Shown here: positions 8,344-14,602 of the stretch, piece after piece
Numbering within the stretch: the first letter of the stretch is position 1
How the letters are laid out: each line of letters starts with the position of its first letter
Source: Gemmatimonadota bacterium
Lineage (GTDB): Bacteria; Gemmatimonadota; Gemmatimonadetes; Palauibacterales; Palauibacteraceae
Direction of reading: 5' to 3'
Length of the DNA: 64,000 nt
Assembly (NCBI GenBank): GCA_039588275.1
Contig: JBDHAC010000013.1
Span: forward strand, 1 to 64,000
Position numbers and translations under genes: made by a program
Notes under the pieces: model-generated
What the model was told of the DNA's origin: nothing
The model's database searches: none
Seen by the model: the letters and a program-made list of their open reading frames with translations, nothing else

Positions 8344-9567
8344 GTGGGACTCGCGGCGTCGGATGCCGCGAGCCGAGAGGAGGTGACTTTGGACTTCTTC
8401 GGGCGTGCTCACCTCGATGAGCTGATGAGAGCTTCGTCCGCGCCTGCCATCTCGATCTACCTGCCCACCAGCCGGGGGCGATCGGCCGCCGATCATGATC
8501 GCCTGCGATTCAAATCGGCCCTCAAGCGCGCGCGCGCCCTCATCGAGGAGACGGATGGCTCGGAGGCGCGCCGATTGAGTGATCTGCTCGACCCACTGGA
8601 GCCTCTGGCGCGTGAGCGCAGGTACTGGAATGGGGCGAAAGGCGGGCTGGCGGTGTTTCGCTCGCCAGAGATCAGCCGCCGCTTCAGGCTCCCCGCGGAC
8701 TTCCCGGAGCTGGTGGTGGTCGGACCGACCTTCCACACTCGACCGCTTGTCGGCTTCCTCCAGGCCCCGGATCGATACTGGGTGCTGGATCTGAGCCAGG
8801 GGCGTGTCCGACTGTGGGCCGGGGACGTGAGCGGCCTCCATCCGGTCGACGCGGAATCGCTCCCGGGGAGCCTGGACGAGGCCCTCGGCTACGAGTACTC
8901 GCGCGATTACGAAGTCGTGCACAGGAGCGGACCTCCAGACGGCCGTAGCGCTCAGCGCGGGGGCGTCCTCGGGTCCTTCCACGGGCATGGTGTCGGGGCG
9001 AACGACCGCGAGCCGGAGCTGCGGCGTTTCTTCAAGGCGGTCGACGACGCGTTGAACGGGCTCCTGGGACCCGAGAGCGGACCGGTGGTCCTGGCCGCGG
9101 TCGCCGAGCACCATTCGCTGTACCGTGCGACGAGCCGTCTGGACACGCTTGAGCCGACGGGGATCGAAGCGTCCGTGCGCGATTGGGGGGCGCAACAGCT
9201 ACATCGTAGAGCCTGGCCACTCGCGCTGCGGGCGGCGGACGCACAGATCGAGCGGGCTCTCGAGCTGTGGGAGAGCAGCTACGGACGGAGCAAGACGGAG
9301 CAGGGGCCGGTGAACATGGGTCCCCTCGCCATGGCGGGACGCGTACGCCTGCTCCTCATCGAGCGCGGACGCCGTCTGTGGGGAAGCCTCGACCGGGCTA
9401 CCGGCCGTATCCAGGTGCGTCACGATGGCGGCGACGACCCCGGCGCCGACGTGGTCGAGCTCCTCGACGAGCTTACCGAGGTCGTGCTGCTCAAGGGTGG
9501 TCGTACCCTCGCGCTGCCCCCGGAGAGGATGCCCACGACCACCGGGGCTGCCGCGATTCTGCGATAG
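8344..9567 (+). CDS. Bacterial archaeo-eukaryotic release factor-like protein (baeRF family 3/7-like), putative Balon-type ribosome hibernation factor
   Basis: PAISIYLPT, GLAVF, VGPTFHTRPL, YWVLDLSQ.RVRLW, FHGHG, FFKAVDDAL, PVVLAA, GRVRLLL and C-terminal GAAAILR. No GGQ. Confidence 0.8.
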   Translation: MGLAASDAASREEVTLDFFGRAHLDELMRASSAPAISIYLPTSRGRSAADHDRLRFKSALKRARALIEETDGSEARRLSDLLDPLEPLARERRYWNGAKGGLAVFRSPEISRRFRLPADFPELVVVGPTFHTRPLVGFLQAPDRYWVLDLSQGRVRLWAGDVSGLHPVDAESLPGSLDEALGYEYSRDYEVVHRSGPPDGRSAQRGGVLGSFHGHGVGANDREPELRRFFKAVDDALNGLLGPESGPVVLAAVAEHHSLYRATSRLDTLEPTGIEASVRDWGAQQLHRRAWPLALRAADAQIERALELWESSYGRSKTEQGPVNMGPLAMAGRVRLLLIERGRRLWGSLDRATGRIQVRHDGGDDPGADVVELLDELTEVVLLKGGRTLALPPERMPTTTGAAAILR

Positions 9568-9631
9568 GGCGCCGTCGCTGCACGCGCGGTGTGCTGCCGG
9601 GCCCATGCGTGTGCCTCAGCGCCGGCGCCGC

Positions 9632-9928
9632 TCAACTCTCGGGCGTCGCCAGCTCCCGCTCGAGCGCGTCCGCGTCCACGTCGCTCGCGTGTGCGCAGGC
9701 GTCGAGCATCTGCTCGAGGCGTGCGGGGTTGAATCCGACGATCACGTCATTACCGTGCGCGATCATGGGAACGCCCGCTCCACCGCTCAACGCCCGCCAC
9801 TCCCTCAAGACTCCCACATCGGAAGTGATGTCCAGCTCCTCGAACTCACACCCTCGCTCTCTCAGCCAATCCTTGGCATCGTGGCAATAGGGTCAGGTCG
9901 GAGTCGTGTAGACGCGAATCTTGGCCAT
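9632..9928 (-). CDS. Glutaredoxin/NrdH-like selenoprotein with UPYC active site (in-frame TGA at 9895-9893)
   Basis: ATG GCC AAG ATT CGC GTC TAC ACG ACT CCG ACC TGA CCC TAT TGC = MAKIRVYTTPT-U-PYCHDAKDWLRERGCEFEELDI...GVPMI...IVGFNPARL. Joins track ORFs 9893..10192 and 9632..9817 in one frame. GGAGAGGA RBS. Confidence 0.85.
9851..9892 (-). promoter_or_regulatory. Putative bacterial SECIS element
   Basis: mRNA after UGA is CCCUAUUGCCACGAU-GCCAA-GGA-UUGGC-UGAGAGA-GCGAGGG. Apical stem GCCAA/UUGGC with a G-starting loop 21 nt after UGA. Lower stem CCCU..UGC/GCG-AGGG. Confidence 0.65.
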
Positions 9929-10026
9929 CGGGCTATCCTCTCCGCTAAGATGCTCGGCACACGGGGACGAAGCGCGCGGCGGTACTACACCGCTGCAGCC
10001 GGATCCTAACCTCCCGGGGGTAAGCC

Positions 10027-10683
10027 GTGCACGACGCACAGCGAGTCGCGAGCGACATCTTCGACGCGTTGGCCGGCGAGGCCTGGTATGCGGCGGCCAG
10101 GCACATCCACCCCCGAGTCGCCGCGCGCCTGTACCACGAGACGAGCGAGCGCATTCGGCATTGGAGCGAGCCAGAGGGGCCGACGCTCGCACAGTTCCGC
10201 CAACAGGATCCCGACATGCCCGAGGCGGTCGCCGAGTACCTGGTGGCCAGGGCGAGGACCTCCCGGTACGTGCCCACGACGTGGACCGATAGCTTTCCCG
10301 GCCTGGAGAGCCCCGAGGAGTTCGAGGCGATGACGTCGCTCGACTACATGGCGCGGTATCTAGAGACGTTCGACGTGCGTGCGCAGTATCGAGCCCGACT
10401 GGAGGACGACGGCGAGGCGGCCCACGAGTGGACTGCGGACATGGCTCGCGGGCCGGACCGGGTGATCCTGGGCGCCGTGCTCGAGGGAGACGACGTGGCC
10501 CACATCACGTATCGGGTCACCTGGTCCCGCGAGGACGGACCCGGACTTCTGGATCACGTCGACCTCCTCACGCTGCGCAAGAGCGACGATGGGTGGAAGG
10601 CGGTCAGCATCGAGCTCAACGGCTTGCCTAAGAACATGTGGTTCTGGGTCCAGGTGCCGTCGCTACCGGAGCACGAGTCGTGA
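10027..10683 (+). CDS. Hypothetical protein, possibly NTF2/SnoaL-like fold
   Basis: Coding-like ORF. C-terminal VAHITYRV...LLTLRKSDDGWK pattern. Stop overlaps the next GTG start. Confidence 0.6.
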   Translation: MHDAQRVASDIFDALAGEAWYAAARHIHPRVAARLYHETSERIRHWSEPEGPTLAQFRQQDPDMPEAVAEYLVARARTSRYVPTTWTDSFPGLESPEEFEAMTSLDYMARYLETFDVRAQYRARLEDDGEAAHEWTADMARGPDRVILGAVLEGDDVAHITYRVTWSREDGPGLLDHVDLLTLRKSDDGWKAVSIELNGLPKNMWFWVQVPSLPEHES

Positions 10684-11252
10684 TCAACGGCCGGCGAGCG
10701 AACCGGCCTCGCCTGTCCATGCTCGCGAGCGCCGTCGCCGTGACCGCTGCCGTCTCCGTCGCTCTCGCCGGTTGTCGGAACGAGTTCGCCGAGCGGCTCA
10801 CGCTGGAGCTCCCGCCGGGGCCGGAAGTGGGCCGGCCGGCTCCGGTTTTCGAGGCCACGGCGCTGGATGGGGCGACCGTACGGCTCGCCGACCTTCGCGG
10901 GCGCGCGGTGCTCCTCAACTCGTGGGCCACCTGGTGTCTCCCGTGTCTGGAAGAGATGCCGGAGCTCGAGGAGCTTCAGCGCCTTCATCCGGCCGAAGAG
11001 CTCGCGGTGGTCGGGGTCTCGATCGACGCTCTCCCGTTGCCCGAGATCCAGGAGTTCCTCGACGAGCACGGGATCACGTATCGGAACCTGTGGGCCCGGG
11101 CCGACGACCTGCACGAAACGTTCGACTGGGGGCGCGGAGTCCCCAAGACCGTGTTGATCGATGCGAACGGCGTGATCAGAGGTTATTGGGCCGGGCGCTT
11201 CAGGCCGTTCGATCCGGAGAACGAGGTGCTGATCGACGCTACGCTACGATGA
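10680..11252 (+). CDS. TlpA/ResA-like thioredoxin-fold disulfide reductase, probable lipoprotein
   Basis: LLNSWATWCLPCLEEMP, cis-Pro GVPKT, LAGC lipobox. Confidence 0.9.
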   Translation: MINGRRANRPRLSMLASAVAVTAAVSVALAGCRNEFAERLTLELPPGPEVGRPAPVFEATALDGATVRLADLRGRAVLLNSWATWCLPCLEEMPELEELQRLHPAEELAVVGVSIDALPLPEIQEFLDEHGITYRNLWARADDLHETFDWGRGVPKTVLIDANGVIRGYWAGRFRPFDPENEVLIDATLR

Positions 11253-11294
11253 GAGTGCGGTGCGTCCCGCAGCCCGAATGAGGGAGTCCAAGCC

Positions 11295-11645
11295 ATGCCC
11301 GCGACGTTAAAGCCGCCGATCGACATGCAAACACTCGAGGCCATCGACGTGCGCGTGGGCACGATCGTCCGGGTCGAGGACGTCGCCGGGGCCAGAAGCC
11401 TGGTTCGACTGCGCGTCGATCTGGGGGATCACGAACGGACCGTCCTCGCCGGCCTCAAGGGAGAGCGTGTGGATCCGAGCGAACTGGAGGGGATGCAGGC
11501 GCTGTTCGTCGTAAACCTCGAACCCCGGGAGATGATGGGAGAGGTCTCGGAGGGCATGCTGTTCGACATCGGTTACGCCGATGGCATCACCCCGGTGCTG
11601 GCGATCCCCGAGATGCCGGTGCCGCCCGGAACTCAGGTCGGGTGA
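11295..11645 (+). CDS. tRNA-binding OB-fold protein (CsaA/Trbp111 family)
   Basis: IDVRVGTI, VDLG, VVNLEPREMMGEVSEGML, PPGTQVG. Confidence 0.9.
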   Translation: MPATLKPPIDMQTLEAIDVRVGTIVRVEDVAGARSLVRLRVDLGDHERTVLAGLKGERVDPSELEGMQALFVVNLEPREMMGEVSEGMLFDIGYADGITPVLAIPEMPVPPGTQVG

Positions 11646-11688: not shown

Positions 11689-13215
11689 TCACACCAGCAT
11701 GCCGCGAAGCGTGTCGATCGTGTCCGCCTCGGAGGCGGACTTGTCCTCCCGGTAGCCTCTGACTCTCGCGAATCGAAGCGCGACACCACCCGGGTAGCGC
11801 GGACTTCGCTGCACACCGTCGAACGCGATCTCGACCACGAGCTCCGGCCGGACCCGCACGACGTGCCGCGATCGTTCCACCTGGATCTCGAGGAGCCGCC
11901 CCGTCTGCCATTCGAGCAGCGCGTCCGTCAGCCCCTTGAACGTCTTCCCCACCATTACGAAGCCTCCGGTGTCCGGATCCCGGGCCCCGAGGTGAAGGTT
12001 GCTCAGGCTTCCGGTGCGGCGACCGTGTCCCCACTCGGCGGCGAGCACGACCAGATCCAGCGTGTGAACGGGCTTGACCTTGAGCCAGCTCTTGCCCCGG
12101 CGTCCGGCCACGTACTCGGCGTTCAGGTCCTTGGCGATCACGCCCTCGTGCCCTGCGCCTCGCGATCGATCGAAGAACCGTTCCGCTGCGAGCGCGTCCT
12201 CTGTGACGAGGCGCTCGACGAGATTCGCTGCGGGGACGAGCGCAGACAGGGCGGACCAACGTTCGGCAGCGGGAGCATCGATCAGCGGGGTTCCGTTCAA
12301 GAAGAGGCAATCGAAGAAGAAGGGAGTCAACGGGAGCGACGCGCTCAACCGCTGAACATCGGCGACGCGGCCGAAGCGGCGCATGGTCTCCTGGAAAGGG
12401 CGCGGACGGCCGTCGGCGTGCAGGGCGACCGCTTCTCCGTCCAATATCACCTCGTCGGCGGGTAGCGAACGGACGAGCTCGACCAGCTCCGGCAGGGCAG
12501 CGGTCTCATCGTTCAGGCGCCGCGTGAAGATCCGCGCTTTCCTGCCACGCTTGTGAGCCTGCACGCGAGCGCCATCGATCTTGTACTCGAGGGCTGCGCG
12601 CCCCAGGCGGTCGAGCGCCGCGGTCAGGCTCGGCGCGGAATCGGCCAGCATGGGCTTTACGGGACGGAAGAGCCGGATCGAGAAGCCGTCGAGGGCGGAG
12701 AGCCCTTCGAGGAGAAGGGCCGTGGCCACCTCGCCGATGTCGCCGGCGAGCATCACGGCCCGACGTACGCGCGAGGCGGGAGCGTCCGCCGCCCGGGCCA
12801 CGGCATCCAACATCACGCCCTCCTGGGCCCCCTGCCGCAGCTCTCCGAGCAGGAGTCCGACCAGGAAGCGTTGTTCTTCTCCGGTCGCACGGACGAACAG
12901 CCCCCGGAGCAACCGGATCCGCTCGGCTCCGGACCCGGCACCTCGGACGCTCTGAATCGCGGATAGCGCTTCGTGCACGTCTCCGAGGGTGAGCGATGGT
13001 TCAGGAGCACCGTCCGGCACGAACGCTCGCTGAATGGCGGCGGGGCCGACGCCGATCCTCCCATGCGGGAGGATGCCGGACAGGTAGGCGACGCCGATCG
13101 CCACCTCCGTCCCCTCGAGCCTGCCCAGCACGGCGGCGAGCGCCGCGACCTTCTCCGAGCGCTTCGCCGTCGAGAGCACACGGCCGGATGCACGGACGAT
13201 CTCGCTCAGCTGCAC
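11689..13215 (-). CDS. ATP-dependent DNA ligase (LigB/archaeal-type with N-terminal DNA-binding domain)
   Basis: Motif I EYKIDGAR, ILDGE, FFDCL, EGVIAK, WLKVKP, ALRFARV..REDK. Confidence 0.95.
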   Translation of the reverse strand: MQLSEIVRASGRVLSTAKRSEKVAALAAVLGRLEGTEVAIGVAYLSGILPHGRIGVGPAAIQRAFVPDGAPEPSLTLGDVHEALSAIQSVRGAGSGAERIRLLRGLFVRATGEEQRFLVGLLLGELRQGAQEGVMLDAVARAADAPASRVRRAVMLAGDIGEVATALLLEGLSALDGFSIRLFRPVKPMLADSAPSLTAALDRLGRAALEYKIDGARVQAHKRGRKARIFTRRLNDETAALPELVELVRSLPADEVILDGEAVALHADGRPRPFQETMRRFGRVADVQRLSASLPLTPFFFDCLFLNGTPLIDAPAAERWSALSALVPAANLVERLVTEDALAAERFFDRSRGAGHEGVIAKDLNAEYVAGRRGKSWLKVKPVHTLDLVVLAAEWGHGRRTGSLSNLHLGARDPDTGGFVMVGKTFKGLTDALLEWQTGRLLEIQVERSRHVVRVRPELVVEIAFDGVQRSPRYPGGVALRFARVRGYREDKSASEADTIDTLRGMLV

Positions 13216-13293: not shown

Positions 13294-14187
13294 TCAACTC
13301 GGTTTGCGGGCGCGCACGAACGCGGACATGTACTTCCCATCCGCGGCGTTCGCGATCTCCTCGGCTTCCGGACCGAGCCCTGCCACCAGCTCGCGTGCTT
13401 CCTCCAGCCGATACACTCGAGTCGGCTCGATGTCGATGTCTTGGAACCCGGCTTCAGCCAGGAGTCGCCGATATTCCTCTTCCTCTAGGGCGCCGGCGAC
13501 ACAACCGATCCACAACTCGACGCTCTTCCGGACCGCAGCGGGGACTTCCCCCCGAACCACGATGTCGGAGACGGCGAATCGTCCGCCCGGCTTCAGGACA
13601 CGAAAGGCCTCGCGAAGGACCTGGCCTTTGTCCGCGGACAGGTTGATGACGCAATTGGAGATGACGACGTCTGCGCTCGTGTCCGGGAGCGGGATGTCCT
13701 CGATCTCCCCTTTGAGGAATTCGGCGTTCTGAATGCCGGCCTCCCGACGATTGCGGTCCGCGAGCTCCAGCATGTCGTCCGTCATGTCGAGCCCGTATGC
13801 CATCCCCGTGGGTCCCACGCGACGCGCGGAGAGCAGTACATCGATCCCGCCACCCGACCCCAGGTCGAGCACCACTTCGCCTGCCGTGAGCTCAGCGAGC
13901 GCGGTCGGGTTCCCGCACCCCAGGGAGGCTAGCACCGCGGCCTCCGGCAGTTCGGCGGTTTCGCCCGCTTCGTACAGATTCGCGGTGATCGGATCGCGCT
14001 CGGCCTCCGCCGTCGCGCCCGCCTCGCATCCGCAAGGATCACAGCAGGACGCATCGGAGGCTTCCGGAGGAGTCTCGACGCTCCCGCACCCGGGGATCCG
14101 TCCGTCGGCCGCCTGCCGTGCGGCCTCACCGTATTTCTCGCGGATCGTCTCCCTCAGGACCCCCGCGTCGGTCGTCTCCTTAGACAT
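13294..14187 (-). CDS. arsM: Arsenite S-adenosylmethionine methyltransferase
   Basis: [34 protein letters not shown]. Downstream of arsR. Confidence 0.93.
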
Positions 14188-14222
14188 ATGTCTCTCCTCG
14201 AAGGTTGAGAGTCGGTAGACAG

Positions 14223-14238
14223 ATCAAGTTTTTTTGAT
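14223..14238. promoter_or_regulatory. ArsR-type operator palindrome ATCAA-N6-TTGAT between arsR and arsM
   Basis: ATCAAGTTTTTTTGAT, an AT-rich inverted repeat in a GC-rich background. Confidence 0.65.
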
Positions 14239-14293
14239 ACGTACGCCCACAAAAAAACGTCCTGCGCAAAGACAAACCGGTGTTTCGAGACCA

Positions 14294-14602
14294 TCAGCAG
14301 CAGGTTTCTTCGGGCCGACTCGCCTCGGCGAGGTCGGTAAGCTGCGCCGCCAGCTCCCGGAGCGCGTCGCGATCGACGGCGTAGTACATCCAGCGCCCTT
14401 CCCTGCGCACCTCCACGAGCCCGGCTTCTCGGAGCGTCTTGAGGTGGAAGGAGAGCAACGGCTGCCGGTCATTGCAGCAGCCCGTGAGATCGCAGGCGCA
14501 GCGTTCTCCGCCCGTGAGCGAGCCCAGGATTCGGAGGCGCTTTTCCTCTCCGAGCGCCTTGAAACGGGCCGCGGTCTGCTTTGACGAGATCGTTCGTGCC
14601 AT
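14294..14602 (-). CDS. arsR: ArsR/SmtB family metalloregulator
   Basis: FKALGEEKRLRIL, ERCACDL As(III)-binding box, LSFHLKTLREAGLV..RREGRWMYY, C-terminal CC. Confidence 0.93.
   Translation of the reverse strand: MARTISSKQTAARFKALGEEKRLRILGSLTGGERCACDLTGCCNDRQPLLSFHLKTLREAGLVEVRREGRWMYYAVDRDALRELAAQLTDLAEASRPEETCC

Follow-up and report, generated by a model that had tools for sequence, protein, structure and literature searches.

Here, we describe a gene on the minus strand of a 64,000-nucleotide stretch of Gemmatimonadota DNA, called the window below. We will argue with high confidence that positions 9928 to 9632 carry an intact 98-codon open reading frame of the glutaredoxin fold, in which a UGA would be translated as selenocysteine (Sec), and whose predicted product is a U12-P-Y-C15 disulfide reductase, probably recycled by thioredoxin reductase (TrxR) rather than by glutathione. 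For the recoding taken by itself, namely that the UGA at codon 12 is read as Sec, comparison of the sequences leaves very little doubt. The decisive evidence is comparative, since the folding energy of the hairpin that follows the UGA is unremarkable when taken alone. The protein is a new member of the verified Sec-glutaredoxin family and represents neither a new mechanism nor a new family; what it adds to that family is a Sec-using branch of uncultured Gemmatimonadota.

The gene (9632-9928, minus strand), identified from a PF00462 match, the reading of the frame and the predicted fold, runs from an ATG at 9928-9926 to a terminal TGA at 9634-9632. When the internal TGA is read as U, the translation starts with MAKIRVYTTPTUPYCHDAKDWL. 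This TGA (9893-9895, minus strand) is codon 12 and would place Sec at the nucleophilic position of the CPYC motif, in the context YTTPT-U-PYC. A preliminary description of the DNA, made from the letters alone and giving no strand for the gene, had stated that it is the single in-frame stop of the 98-codon frame and falls on the first cysteine of CPYC, that a good ribosome-binding site precedes the frame, and that the downstream fold is intact. All of this was borne out: the Shine-Dalgarno-like GGAGAGGA (9936-9943, minus strand) lies 7 nt ahead of the ATG, and GVP and VGF were found at residues 52-54 and 64-66. By inspection, purine-rich segments also lie upstream of most orthologues. In an 88-row alignment, the codon-12 column is invariantly Cys or Sec, and Cys15 (9884-9886, minus strand), the predicted resolving cysteine, is invariant in all rows. 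The alignment also shows Pro54 of GVP (9767-9769, minus strand), at the cis-Pro position of the thioredoxin fold, to be invariant, and Gly65-Phe66 (9731-9736, minus strand) to correspond to the GF motif seen in redoxins of the NrdH/Cp9/BC3987 type. A search of 9450-10150 gave neither a sigma-70 promoter nor an intrinsic terminator, and the window gave zero matches to Rfam.

It should be pointed out that the gene had been described as missed by ORF calling, and plain calling indeed splits the frame at the TGA, listing a 61-aa downstream fragment (9632-9817) and an upstream frame that stops at the TGA. Gene callers lose the active-site N-terminus in this way, and the Sec form is thus not visible in protein databases. 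Among 57 full-length database homologues, none has Sec at position 12, 56 have Cys there and one, P0027, has Arg. Two other database proteins of the family, P0060 and P0061, start beyond the active site and, to judge from their sequences, may be Sec forms that a gene caller has truncated. The annotation is corrected here by restoring the Sec form, the TGA being present in 30 of 34 genomic copies.

The host genome (4.1 Mb, 66.7% GC, 85.8% complete) was searched for the Sec machinery, as the preliminary description had proposed, and all four components were found over their curated cut-offs: selA with 531 bits (cut-off 268), selB with 364 bits (242), selD with 377 bits (125) and a tRNA-Sec with a TCA anticodon with 75.7 bits (47). 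The selD gene has an in-frame TGA of its own. Among the 61 related genomes, selA was matched in 60, in 59 of them over the cut-off. An in-frame TGA could in principle also reflect a reassignment or suppression of UGA to Trp, Gly or Cys in the host, but nothing further speaks for this. The gene itself terminates in TGA, the selA, selB, TrxR and MsrA genes of the same genome contain zero internal stops, the TGA at codon 12 is aligned with Cys alone, and the genome has a tRNA-Sec with a TCA anticodon. The probability of such a reassignment is negligible, and Sec is the preferred reading of the codon.

The closest named relatives of the protein are from Gemmatimonadota metagenome-assembled genomes, with 89, 76 and 67% identity. 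In the 61 related genomes, 29 gave matches at E <= 0.001, and full-length orthologues were obtained from 27 genomes (host included), 25 of them with TGA and two with Cys at codon 12. A phylum-wide sample, with matches in 8 of 301 genomes, adds four TGA and two Cys forms, and a search for the closest relatives adds one more TGA form. The total is thus 34 distinct orthologues, 30 with TGA and four with TGC or TGT, a count that overstates independence, as 19 of the 30 TGA forms belong to one tight clade. Left out of these counts are L035 (cut by a contig end), L038 and L040 (duplicates, at the protein level, of L010 and L026), L070 (register offset) and three weak, non-orthologous matches (L036, L037 and one without a locus). 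The gene is patchy in its distribution, being matched at E <= 0.001 in 7 of 36 genomes of the host's own family (six of these being orthologues) and in 21 of 24 genomes of the sister family. Among 76 distant CPYC homologues, none has TGA and all 76 have Cys.

The frame is open past codon 12 in all 34 sequences, the TGA forms encode 88-99 aa, and most orthologues terminate in TAG. For codons 13-80, comparison with same-genus orthologues gave 22 synonymous and 6 non-synonymous differences, and a second pair gave 20 and 8, which indicates that this part of the gene is under purifying selection. In a tree that included 8 of the 76 outgroup rows, the orthologue clade is set apart from the outgroup with a support of 100/100. 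Sec and Cys forms are interspersed within the clade; the tree gives three Sec/Cys changes with the forks left open, and we make no claim as to the direction of Sec gain or loss.

The hairpin proposed in the preliminary description, GCCAA-GGA-UUGGC with a G-first loop 21 nt past the UGA, was recovered at 9877-9865. Folding and conservation define it as an apical SECIS hairpin (9865-9877, minus strand) with a 5-bp stem, a GGA triloop closed by an A-U pair, and the loop G at +21. It forms the apex of the minimum-energy fold, in which a lower stem is predicted around it (9850-9893, minus strand; -13.8 kcal/mol for 46 nt), with pairing that differs between orthologues. The 23-nt apical piece by itself has -5.0 kcal/mol. 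The folding z-scores are weak (-1.9, -0.9 and 0.0 for 46, 56 and 86 nt, respectively) and are for this reason not used as evidence. The published bacterial SECIS model (PMC13188914, Fig. 2 legend) prescribes a loop of 3-9 nt with a G within its first two positions (N1-G-G/U-N-N2), an upper stem of 4-16 bp, a distance of 16-37 nt from the UGA and a minimum free energy of at most -7.5 kcal/mol. The hairpin agrees with the model on every point, having a 3-nt loop, a 5-bp stem, A-GGA-U as its cap, a distance of +21 and -13.8 kcal/mol for 46 nt.

Much more telling than the energy is the conservation. Of the 30 TGA forms, 28 have a triloop hairpin of at least 5 bp, as against none of the four Cys forms, in which codon 20 is GAA, GCT, GCG or GGA. 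In 43 columns, 90% or more of the TGA forms share a residue that has synonymous codons; only two of these columns are synonymously invariant, namely Lys19 (AAG, 30/30) and Asp20 (GAT, 28/28), the codons that form the A-GGA-U cap. At Asp33, Asp37 and Asp61, unlike at Asp20, GAC predominates. Variation at Ala/Val18 changes a C-G pair to U-G only, so that pairing is kept. In the hairpin, no compensatory double change was found and no measure of covariation exceeds that of the shuffles (500 of 500); the conservation of the stem is too high for this test to show covariation. The two TGA orthologues without the 5-bp triloop hairpin, L124 (G182) and L127 (G207), have GAG at codon 20 and have lost the closing A-U pair. 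By inspection they form GCCA-AGGAG-UGGC instead, with a 4-bp stem and an AGGAG loop, and represent a natural SECIS variant. An A/U-closed G-G/U-N triloop on a stem of at least 5 bp follows 111 of the 28,921 in-frame TGA contexts of the genome, a frequency obtained with a pattern that was picked after the candidates had been seen and that is identical to the published one.

All four genomes with a Cys form retain tRNA-Sec, and the two that were tested also retain selA; what has been lost in these genomes is thus the hairpin and not the machinery. The hairpin is in this respect a clean case of a SECIS element with frozen synonymous sites, which the Cys forms have lost, and the interspersed Sec and Cys forms, with the element lost in each of the latter, offer a natural series on what Sec adds.

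These comparisons bear directly on the alternative that the gene is a pseudogene, with a nonsense mutation at the catalytic cysteine, or that the TGA is an assembly error. The read data do not speak to the latter, as the depth at 9880-9903, which includes the TGA, is zero in two DNA sequencing runs. However, the identical TGA is present in 29 other genomes from at least four families, which excludes an assembly error. A pseudogene, in turn, is at odds with the open downstream frame, with the purifying selection that acts on it, and with hairpin codons that are frozen in the TGA forms only. We assign virtually no weight to either possibility. The preliminary description had preferred Sec read-through to a pseudogene, and had singled out the homologue column at codon 12 as a check. 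With the machinery in place, the TGA in 30 of 34 orthologues, homology on both sides of the UGA and a hairpin that is selectively conserved, its preference can be retained.

The gene is not the only one of its kind in the host. Ten other genes with an in-frame TGA have, 18-27 nt past the UGA, a triloop hairpin whose first loop base is G, and in nine of the ten this hairpin is part of the minimum-energy structure; they encode SelD, a SelW-like protein, three AhpD-like proteins, a DUF3179 protein, an ArsM-like protein, two OsmC proteins and a DUF411 protein. The host genome would thus have at least 11 candidate selenoproteins, in a candidate list that is heuristic and not exhaustive. Nine of them (L129-L137), which were the best-coding among the 111 contexts followed by such a hairpin, belong to families that have all been catalogued already, and each has an A/U-closed G-G/U-N triloop hairpin at 18-27 nt: SelW-like (C55:9347, +), SelD (C4:94376, +), three AhpD-like with CxxU (C46:22518, +; C28:37334, +; C35:12298, -), DUF3179 (C15:2547, +), ArsM-like with UxxG (C52:23378, -) and two OsmC with UxxT (C18:93107, -; C15:55594, -).

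The tenth, a DUF411 (PF04214) protein (G000:C5:91294-91818, minus strand; L138/L141), came from a looser hairpin filter. In its CGCC motif the first Cys codon is replaced by TGA, giving UGCC, and a G-first triloop hairpin lies at +22. In the 61 relatives, an in-frame TGA was found in 30 of 59 matches to this family. Of the 29 loci parsed (L160 left out), 17 have TGA and 12 have Cys at the first CGCC cysteine, and a triloop hairpin of 7-9 bp is located at +18 or +22 in all 17 TGA forms. DUF411/PF04214 does not appear among the 119 families tabulated in PMC13188914, as far as the table is available, nor as a selenoprotein in the literature searched.

We next consider where the 98-aa protein belongs. 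It matches PF00462 with 51.4 bits (cut-off 22.9) and is the sole strong match to this family in the host genome, where one marginal second match was found. None of the NCBIfam models is over its cut-off for this protein: the best is the YruB-family model TIGR02196 (69.1 versus 88.55), and NrdH TIGR02194 reaches 43.8 versus 85.75. The Uxx-star model NF041212, scored with C for U, gives 64.1 versus 66. Membership of Uxx-star was rejected, as the score is below the cut-off and the match is unspecific, all 88 alignment rows, including 54 plain CPYC proteins, matching both TIGR02196 and NF041212. The protein shares the glutaredoxin fold with the Uxx-star families (NF041212, NF041114, NF041211, NF047338), but it is below all their cut-offs and has one Sec only, with no second near the C-terminus. 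The "star" in the name presumably denotes a stop codon, i.e. an additional Sec near the C-terminus. In the literature search, the review PMC13188914 was the only match for Uxx-star selenoproteins.

An AlphaFold2 model with U replaced by C (pLDDT 91.1) has the four-strand, three-helix glutaredoxin fold and an additional C-terminal helix. In Foldseek, A. fulgidus Grx-1, BC3987, cGrx1 and NrdH come out as the closest structures, all above E. coli Grx3, while an ESM Atlas search with the Cys-form protein P0003 gave generic glutaredoxin/NrdH clusters only. The available text of PMC3720550 describes Thr8, Pro54, Gly65 and Phe66 as conserved across BC3987, Cp9 and NrdH, with the same numbering as here, Thr8 as aiding the deprotonation of Cys15, C-P-[YW]-C as typical of the Cp9 group, and the NrdH/Cp9/BC3987 proteins as having thioredoxin functionality. 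In the 98-aa protein, I4-R-V-Y-T8 agrees with [IV]-x-[ILV]-[YF]-[ST] at positions 4-8, and Pro54, Gly65 and Phe66 complete the signature. In both fold and motifs the protein fits the NrdH/Cp9/BC3987/YruB group, with which it shares the top-ranked folds, the positions of T8, P54, G65 and F66, and a CPYC-type motif like that of the Cp9 group. It differs from this group in having Sec for the first Cys, additional cysteines, scores below the TIGR02196 and TIGR02194 cut-offs, and a gene that is in no nrdHIEF or trxB-ahpC operon. Nor is it an NrdH-redoxin proper, the motif being UPYC and not C-[VIM]-Q-C and the neighbouring genes being unrelated, with no nrdHIEF operon. The name glutaredoxin in the preliminary description stands as far as fold and Pfam family are concerned, but the protein is NrdH/Cp9/YruB-like and probably not glutathione-dependent.

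Sec-glutaredoxin (PF00462, UxxC) is an experimentally verified selenoprotein family (PMC13188914, Table 1; and, in its available text, PMC9312934). It was predicted in 2005 from ten Sargasso Sea sequences, according to the accessible part of PMC1088965, and the accessible part of PMC13188914 states that Sec forms have been reported from few species. The 98-aa protein resembles this family in a PF00462 score over the cut-off, UxxC with the N-terminal residue as Sec, an in-frame UGA and a bacterial SECIS element 3' of it. It differs in that glutathione dependence is assumed for the family and is doubtful here.

A close relative is cGrx1 of Clostridium (Alkaliphilus) oremlandii (PDB: 7C10/7C12), with 7C10 as the best PDB sequence match (E 5.7e-11). 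This protein of strain OhILAs is described in the available text of PMC7642778 as a native selenoprotein with U/C-P-X-C that was crystallized with Cys in place of Sec, the substitution being U13C in the corresponding text of PMC4479559. The predicted structure superposes on that of cGrx1 with a TM-score of 0.92 (by target) and an rmsd of 1.1 Å at 36% identity. Each of the two proteins is a small domain that stands on its own, contains VGF and has Sec as the N-terminal residue of U-P-x-C (U13/C16 in cGrx1, U12/C15 here). Compared to cGrx1, the 98-aa protein has about 20 more C-terminal residues, which contain the conserved Cys77/78, as well as Cys27 and His58, and it comes from a different phylum. 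A tandem of Sec-Grx and Sec-MsrA as in C. oremlandii was also considered and rejected, as the MsrA of the host is a Cys enzyme.

The string "Gemmatimonad" occurs zero times in the available text of the review PMC13188914. A literature search by title and start of abstract, with most subscription papers and bioRxiv supplements outside its scope, returned no Gemmatimonadota selenoproteins of this kind; the clade may have been listed earlier.

As to the reaction, the established bacterial Sec pathway suggests that a SelB-GTP-Sec-tRNA complex would bind the GGA-triloop hairpin, leading to the insertion of Sec at the UGA. From the known chemistry of CxxC and UxxC proteins, the selenolate of Sec12 would then attack the disulfide of the substrate, and Cys15, aided by Thr8, would resolve the mixed bond. 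The U12-C15 selenenylsulfide formed would finally be reduced anew, either by TrxR or by a small thiol. Peroxide-repair and methionine-repair enzymes of the AhpD-like, OsmC and MsrA types are candidates for the natural substrates.

For the last step, we lean slightly towards re-reduction by an NADPH-dependent TrxR. A profile search found a TrxR over the cut-off in the host genome, and for gshB the same genome (85.8% complete) gave no match. The search of the 61 genomes was for gshB, which was over the cut-off in 0 of 61, with two weak matches below it. The absence of gshB over the cut-off, together with the NrdH/Cp9/BC3987/YruB-type fold and motifs, makes TrxR the likelier reductant compared to glutathione. 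In the host genome there is also a second, TrxR-like flavoprotein (L119; G000:C46:17598-18521, plus strand), which is below the TIGR01292 cut-off and has no CxxC in the stretch read, and which we take to be probably of the ferredoxin/flavodoxin-NADP reductase type.

The alternative is that Sec is inserted as described, but that the product is a true small-thiol glutaredoxin, with glutathione, gamma-glutamylcysteine or some other thiol taking the place of TrxR in its re-reduction. We regard a small thiol as a real possibility for the re-reduction step, if not the favoured one, and give the same weight to this reading of the whole protein. Classical glutaredoxins have a GGxD motif, and the protein has GF(N/S/D)P in its place, which argues against this alternative, as do the lack of gshB over the cut-off in all 61 genomes and the fact that both the closest folds and the T8/P54/G65/F66 signature belong to NrdH/Cp9/BC3987, proteins described with thioredoxin functionality. 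In its favour are the CPYC-type motif and the PF00462 match, the presence of two GCS2-family (glutamate-cysteine ligase-like) genes in a host genome that is incomplete, and the example of cGrx1, whose catalysis is described as completed by GSH in the available text of PMC7642778. Recycling by TrxR is nevertheless our preferred reading.

One feature of the protein is not explained by the comparisons above, and is the only lead to something newer, namely a set of Cys and His residues specific to the clade. Cys27 (9848-9850, minus strand), located where helix 1 ends and ahead of strand 2, is found in 33 of 34 orthologues and 57 of 59 database proteins. His58 (9755-9757, minus strand) is conserved in 34 of 34 and 55 of 59, respectively. 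The C-terminal Cys78 (9695-9697, minus strand) is part of a pair of positions that reads CC, xC or Cx across the clade and Ala77-Cys78 in the host genome; Cys at 77 or 78 is present in 34 of 34 orthologues and 58 of 59 database proteins. Among the 76 outgroup CPYC proteins, Cys27 occurs in none and a Cys within 76-81 in two. In the model, Cys27, His58 and Cys77/78 are located at the end of helix 1, the turn between strands 3 and 4, and the end of helix 3, which we take to be the end of the fold away from the active site. This location makes a structural disulfide or a metal site plausible, and from the topology of the fold Cys27 and Cys77/78 probably form such a second site on the far face.

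Two further readings make use of these residues. In the first, the clade would be an uncatalogued Gemmatimonadota subfamily that is glutathione-independent, fed by TrxR, and equipped with two redox or metal centres (Sec12-Cys15 on the one hand, and Cys27, Cys77/78 and His58 on the other). We consider this somewhat unlikely; if true, the second site might be a site for Zn or Cu, or a disulfide with a regulatory, gating effect on the activity. In the second, which is quite improbable, the protein would be mainly a seleno-redoxin for metal(loid) binding or trafficking, making use of U12/C15 and of Cys27, Cys77/78 and His58. The near-invariance of the three positions in the clade, together with the absence of Cys27 and the rarity of the C-terminal Cys in the 76 outgroup proteins, would fit such a function, as would the Uxx-star score close to the cut-off (64.1 versus 66), a family in which Sec may serve as a metal ligand according to the available text of PMC13188914. 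On the other hand, the Uxx-star match is common to all 88 rows, there is no metal-resistance neighbourhood, and the canonical oxidoreductase motifs are intact. The disulfide reductase remains the preferred reading.

The genomic neighbourhood was examined as a possible clue to function and was set aside, as it has the appearance of simple synteny and offers no redox partner. Comparison of the orthologous loci gave no conserved partner gene beside the glutaredoxin-like gene. The 18 family-f2 loci have a divergent UvrD/Rep helicase in common (family scan on one of the 18). In the window, a baeRF3-family release-factor-like gene (8344-9567, plus strand), conserved in genus g1, converges on the 3' end of the gene and is probably unrelated to the recoding of UGA. 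On the other side, positions 10027-11645 (plus strand) carry a block of three genes, encoding a 218-aa ORF without a Pfam match, an AhpC-TSA/redoxin protein with CLPC and a tRNA-binding domain protein. The block sits between the glutaredoxin-like gene and a gene at 11689-13215 that is DNA-ligase-like by inspection. In the same-genus loci, the DNA-ligase-like gene immediately precedes the glutaredoxin-like gene, so that the block looks to have been either inserted in the host genome or lost in the others. Further along, at 13294-14602 (minus strand), inspection suggests an ArsR-like regulator followed by an arsenite-methyltransferase-like gene in the Cys form; the other ArsM-like gene of the genome, on C52, has TGA at the position matching that Cys.
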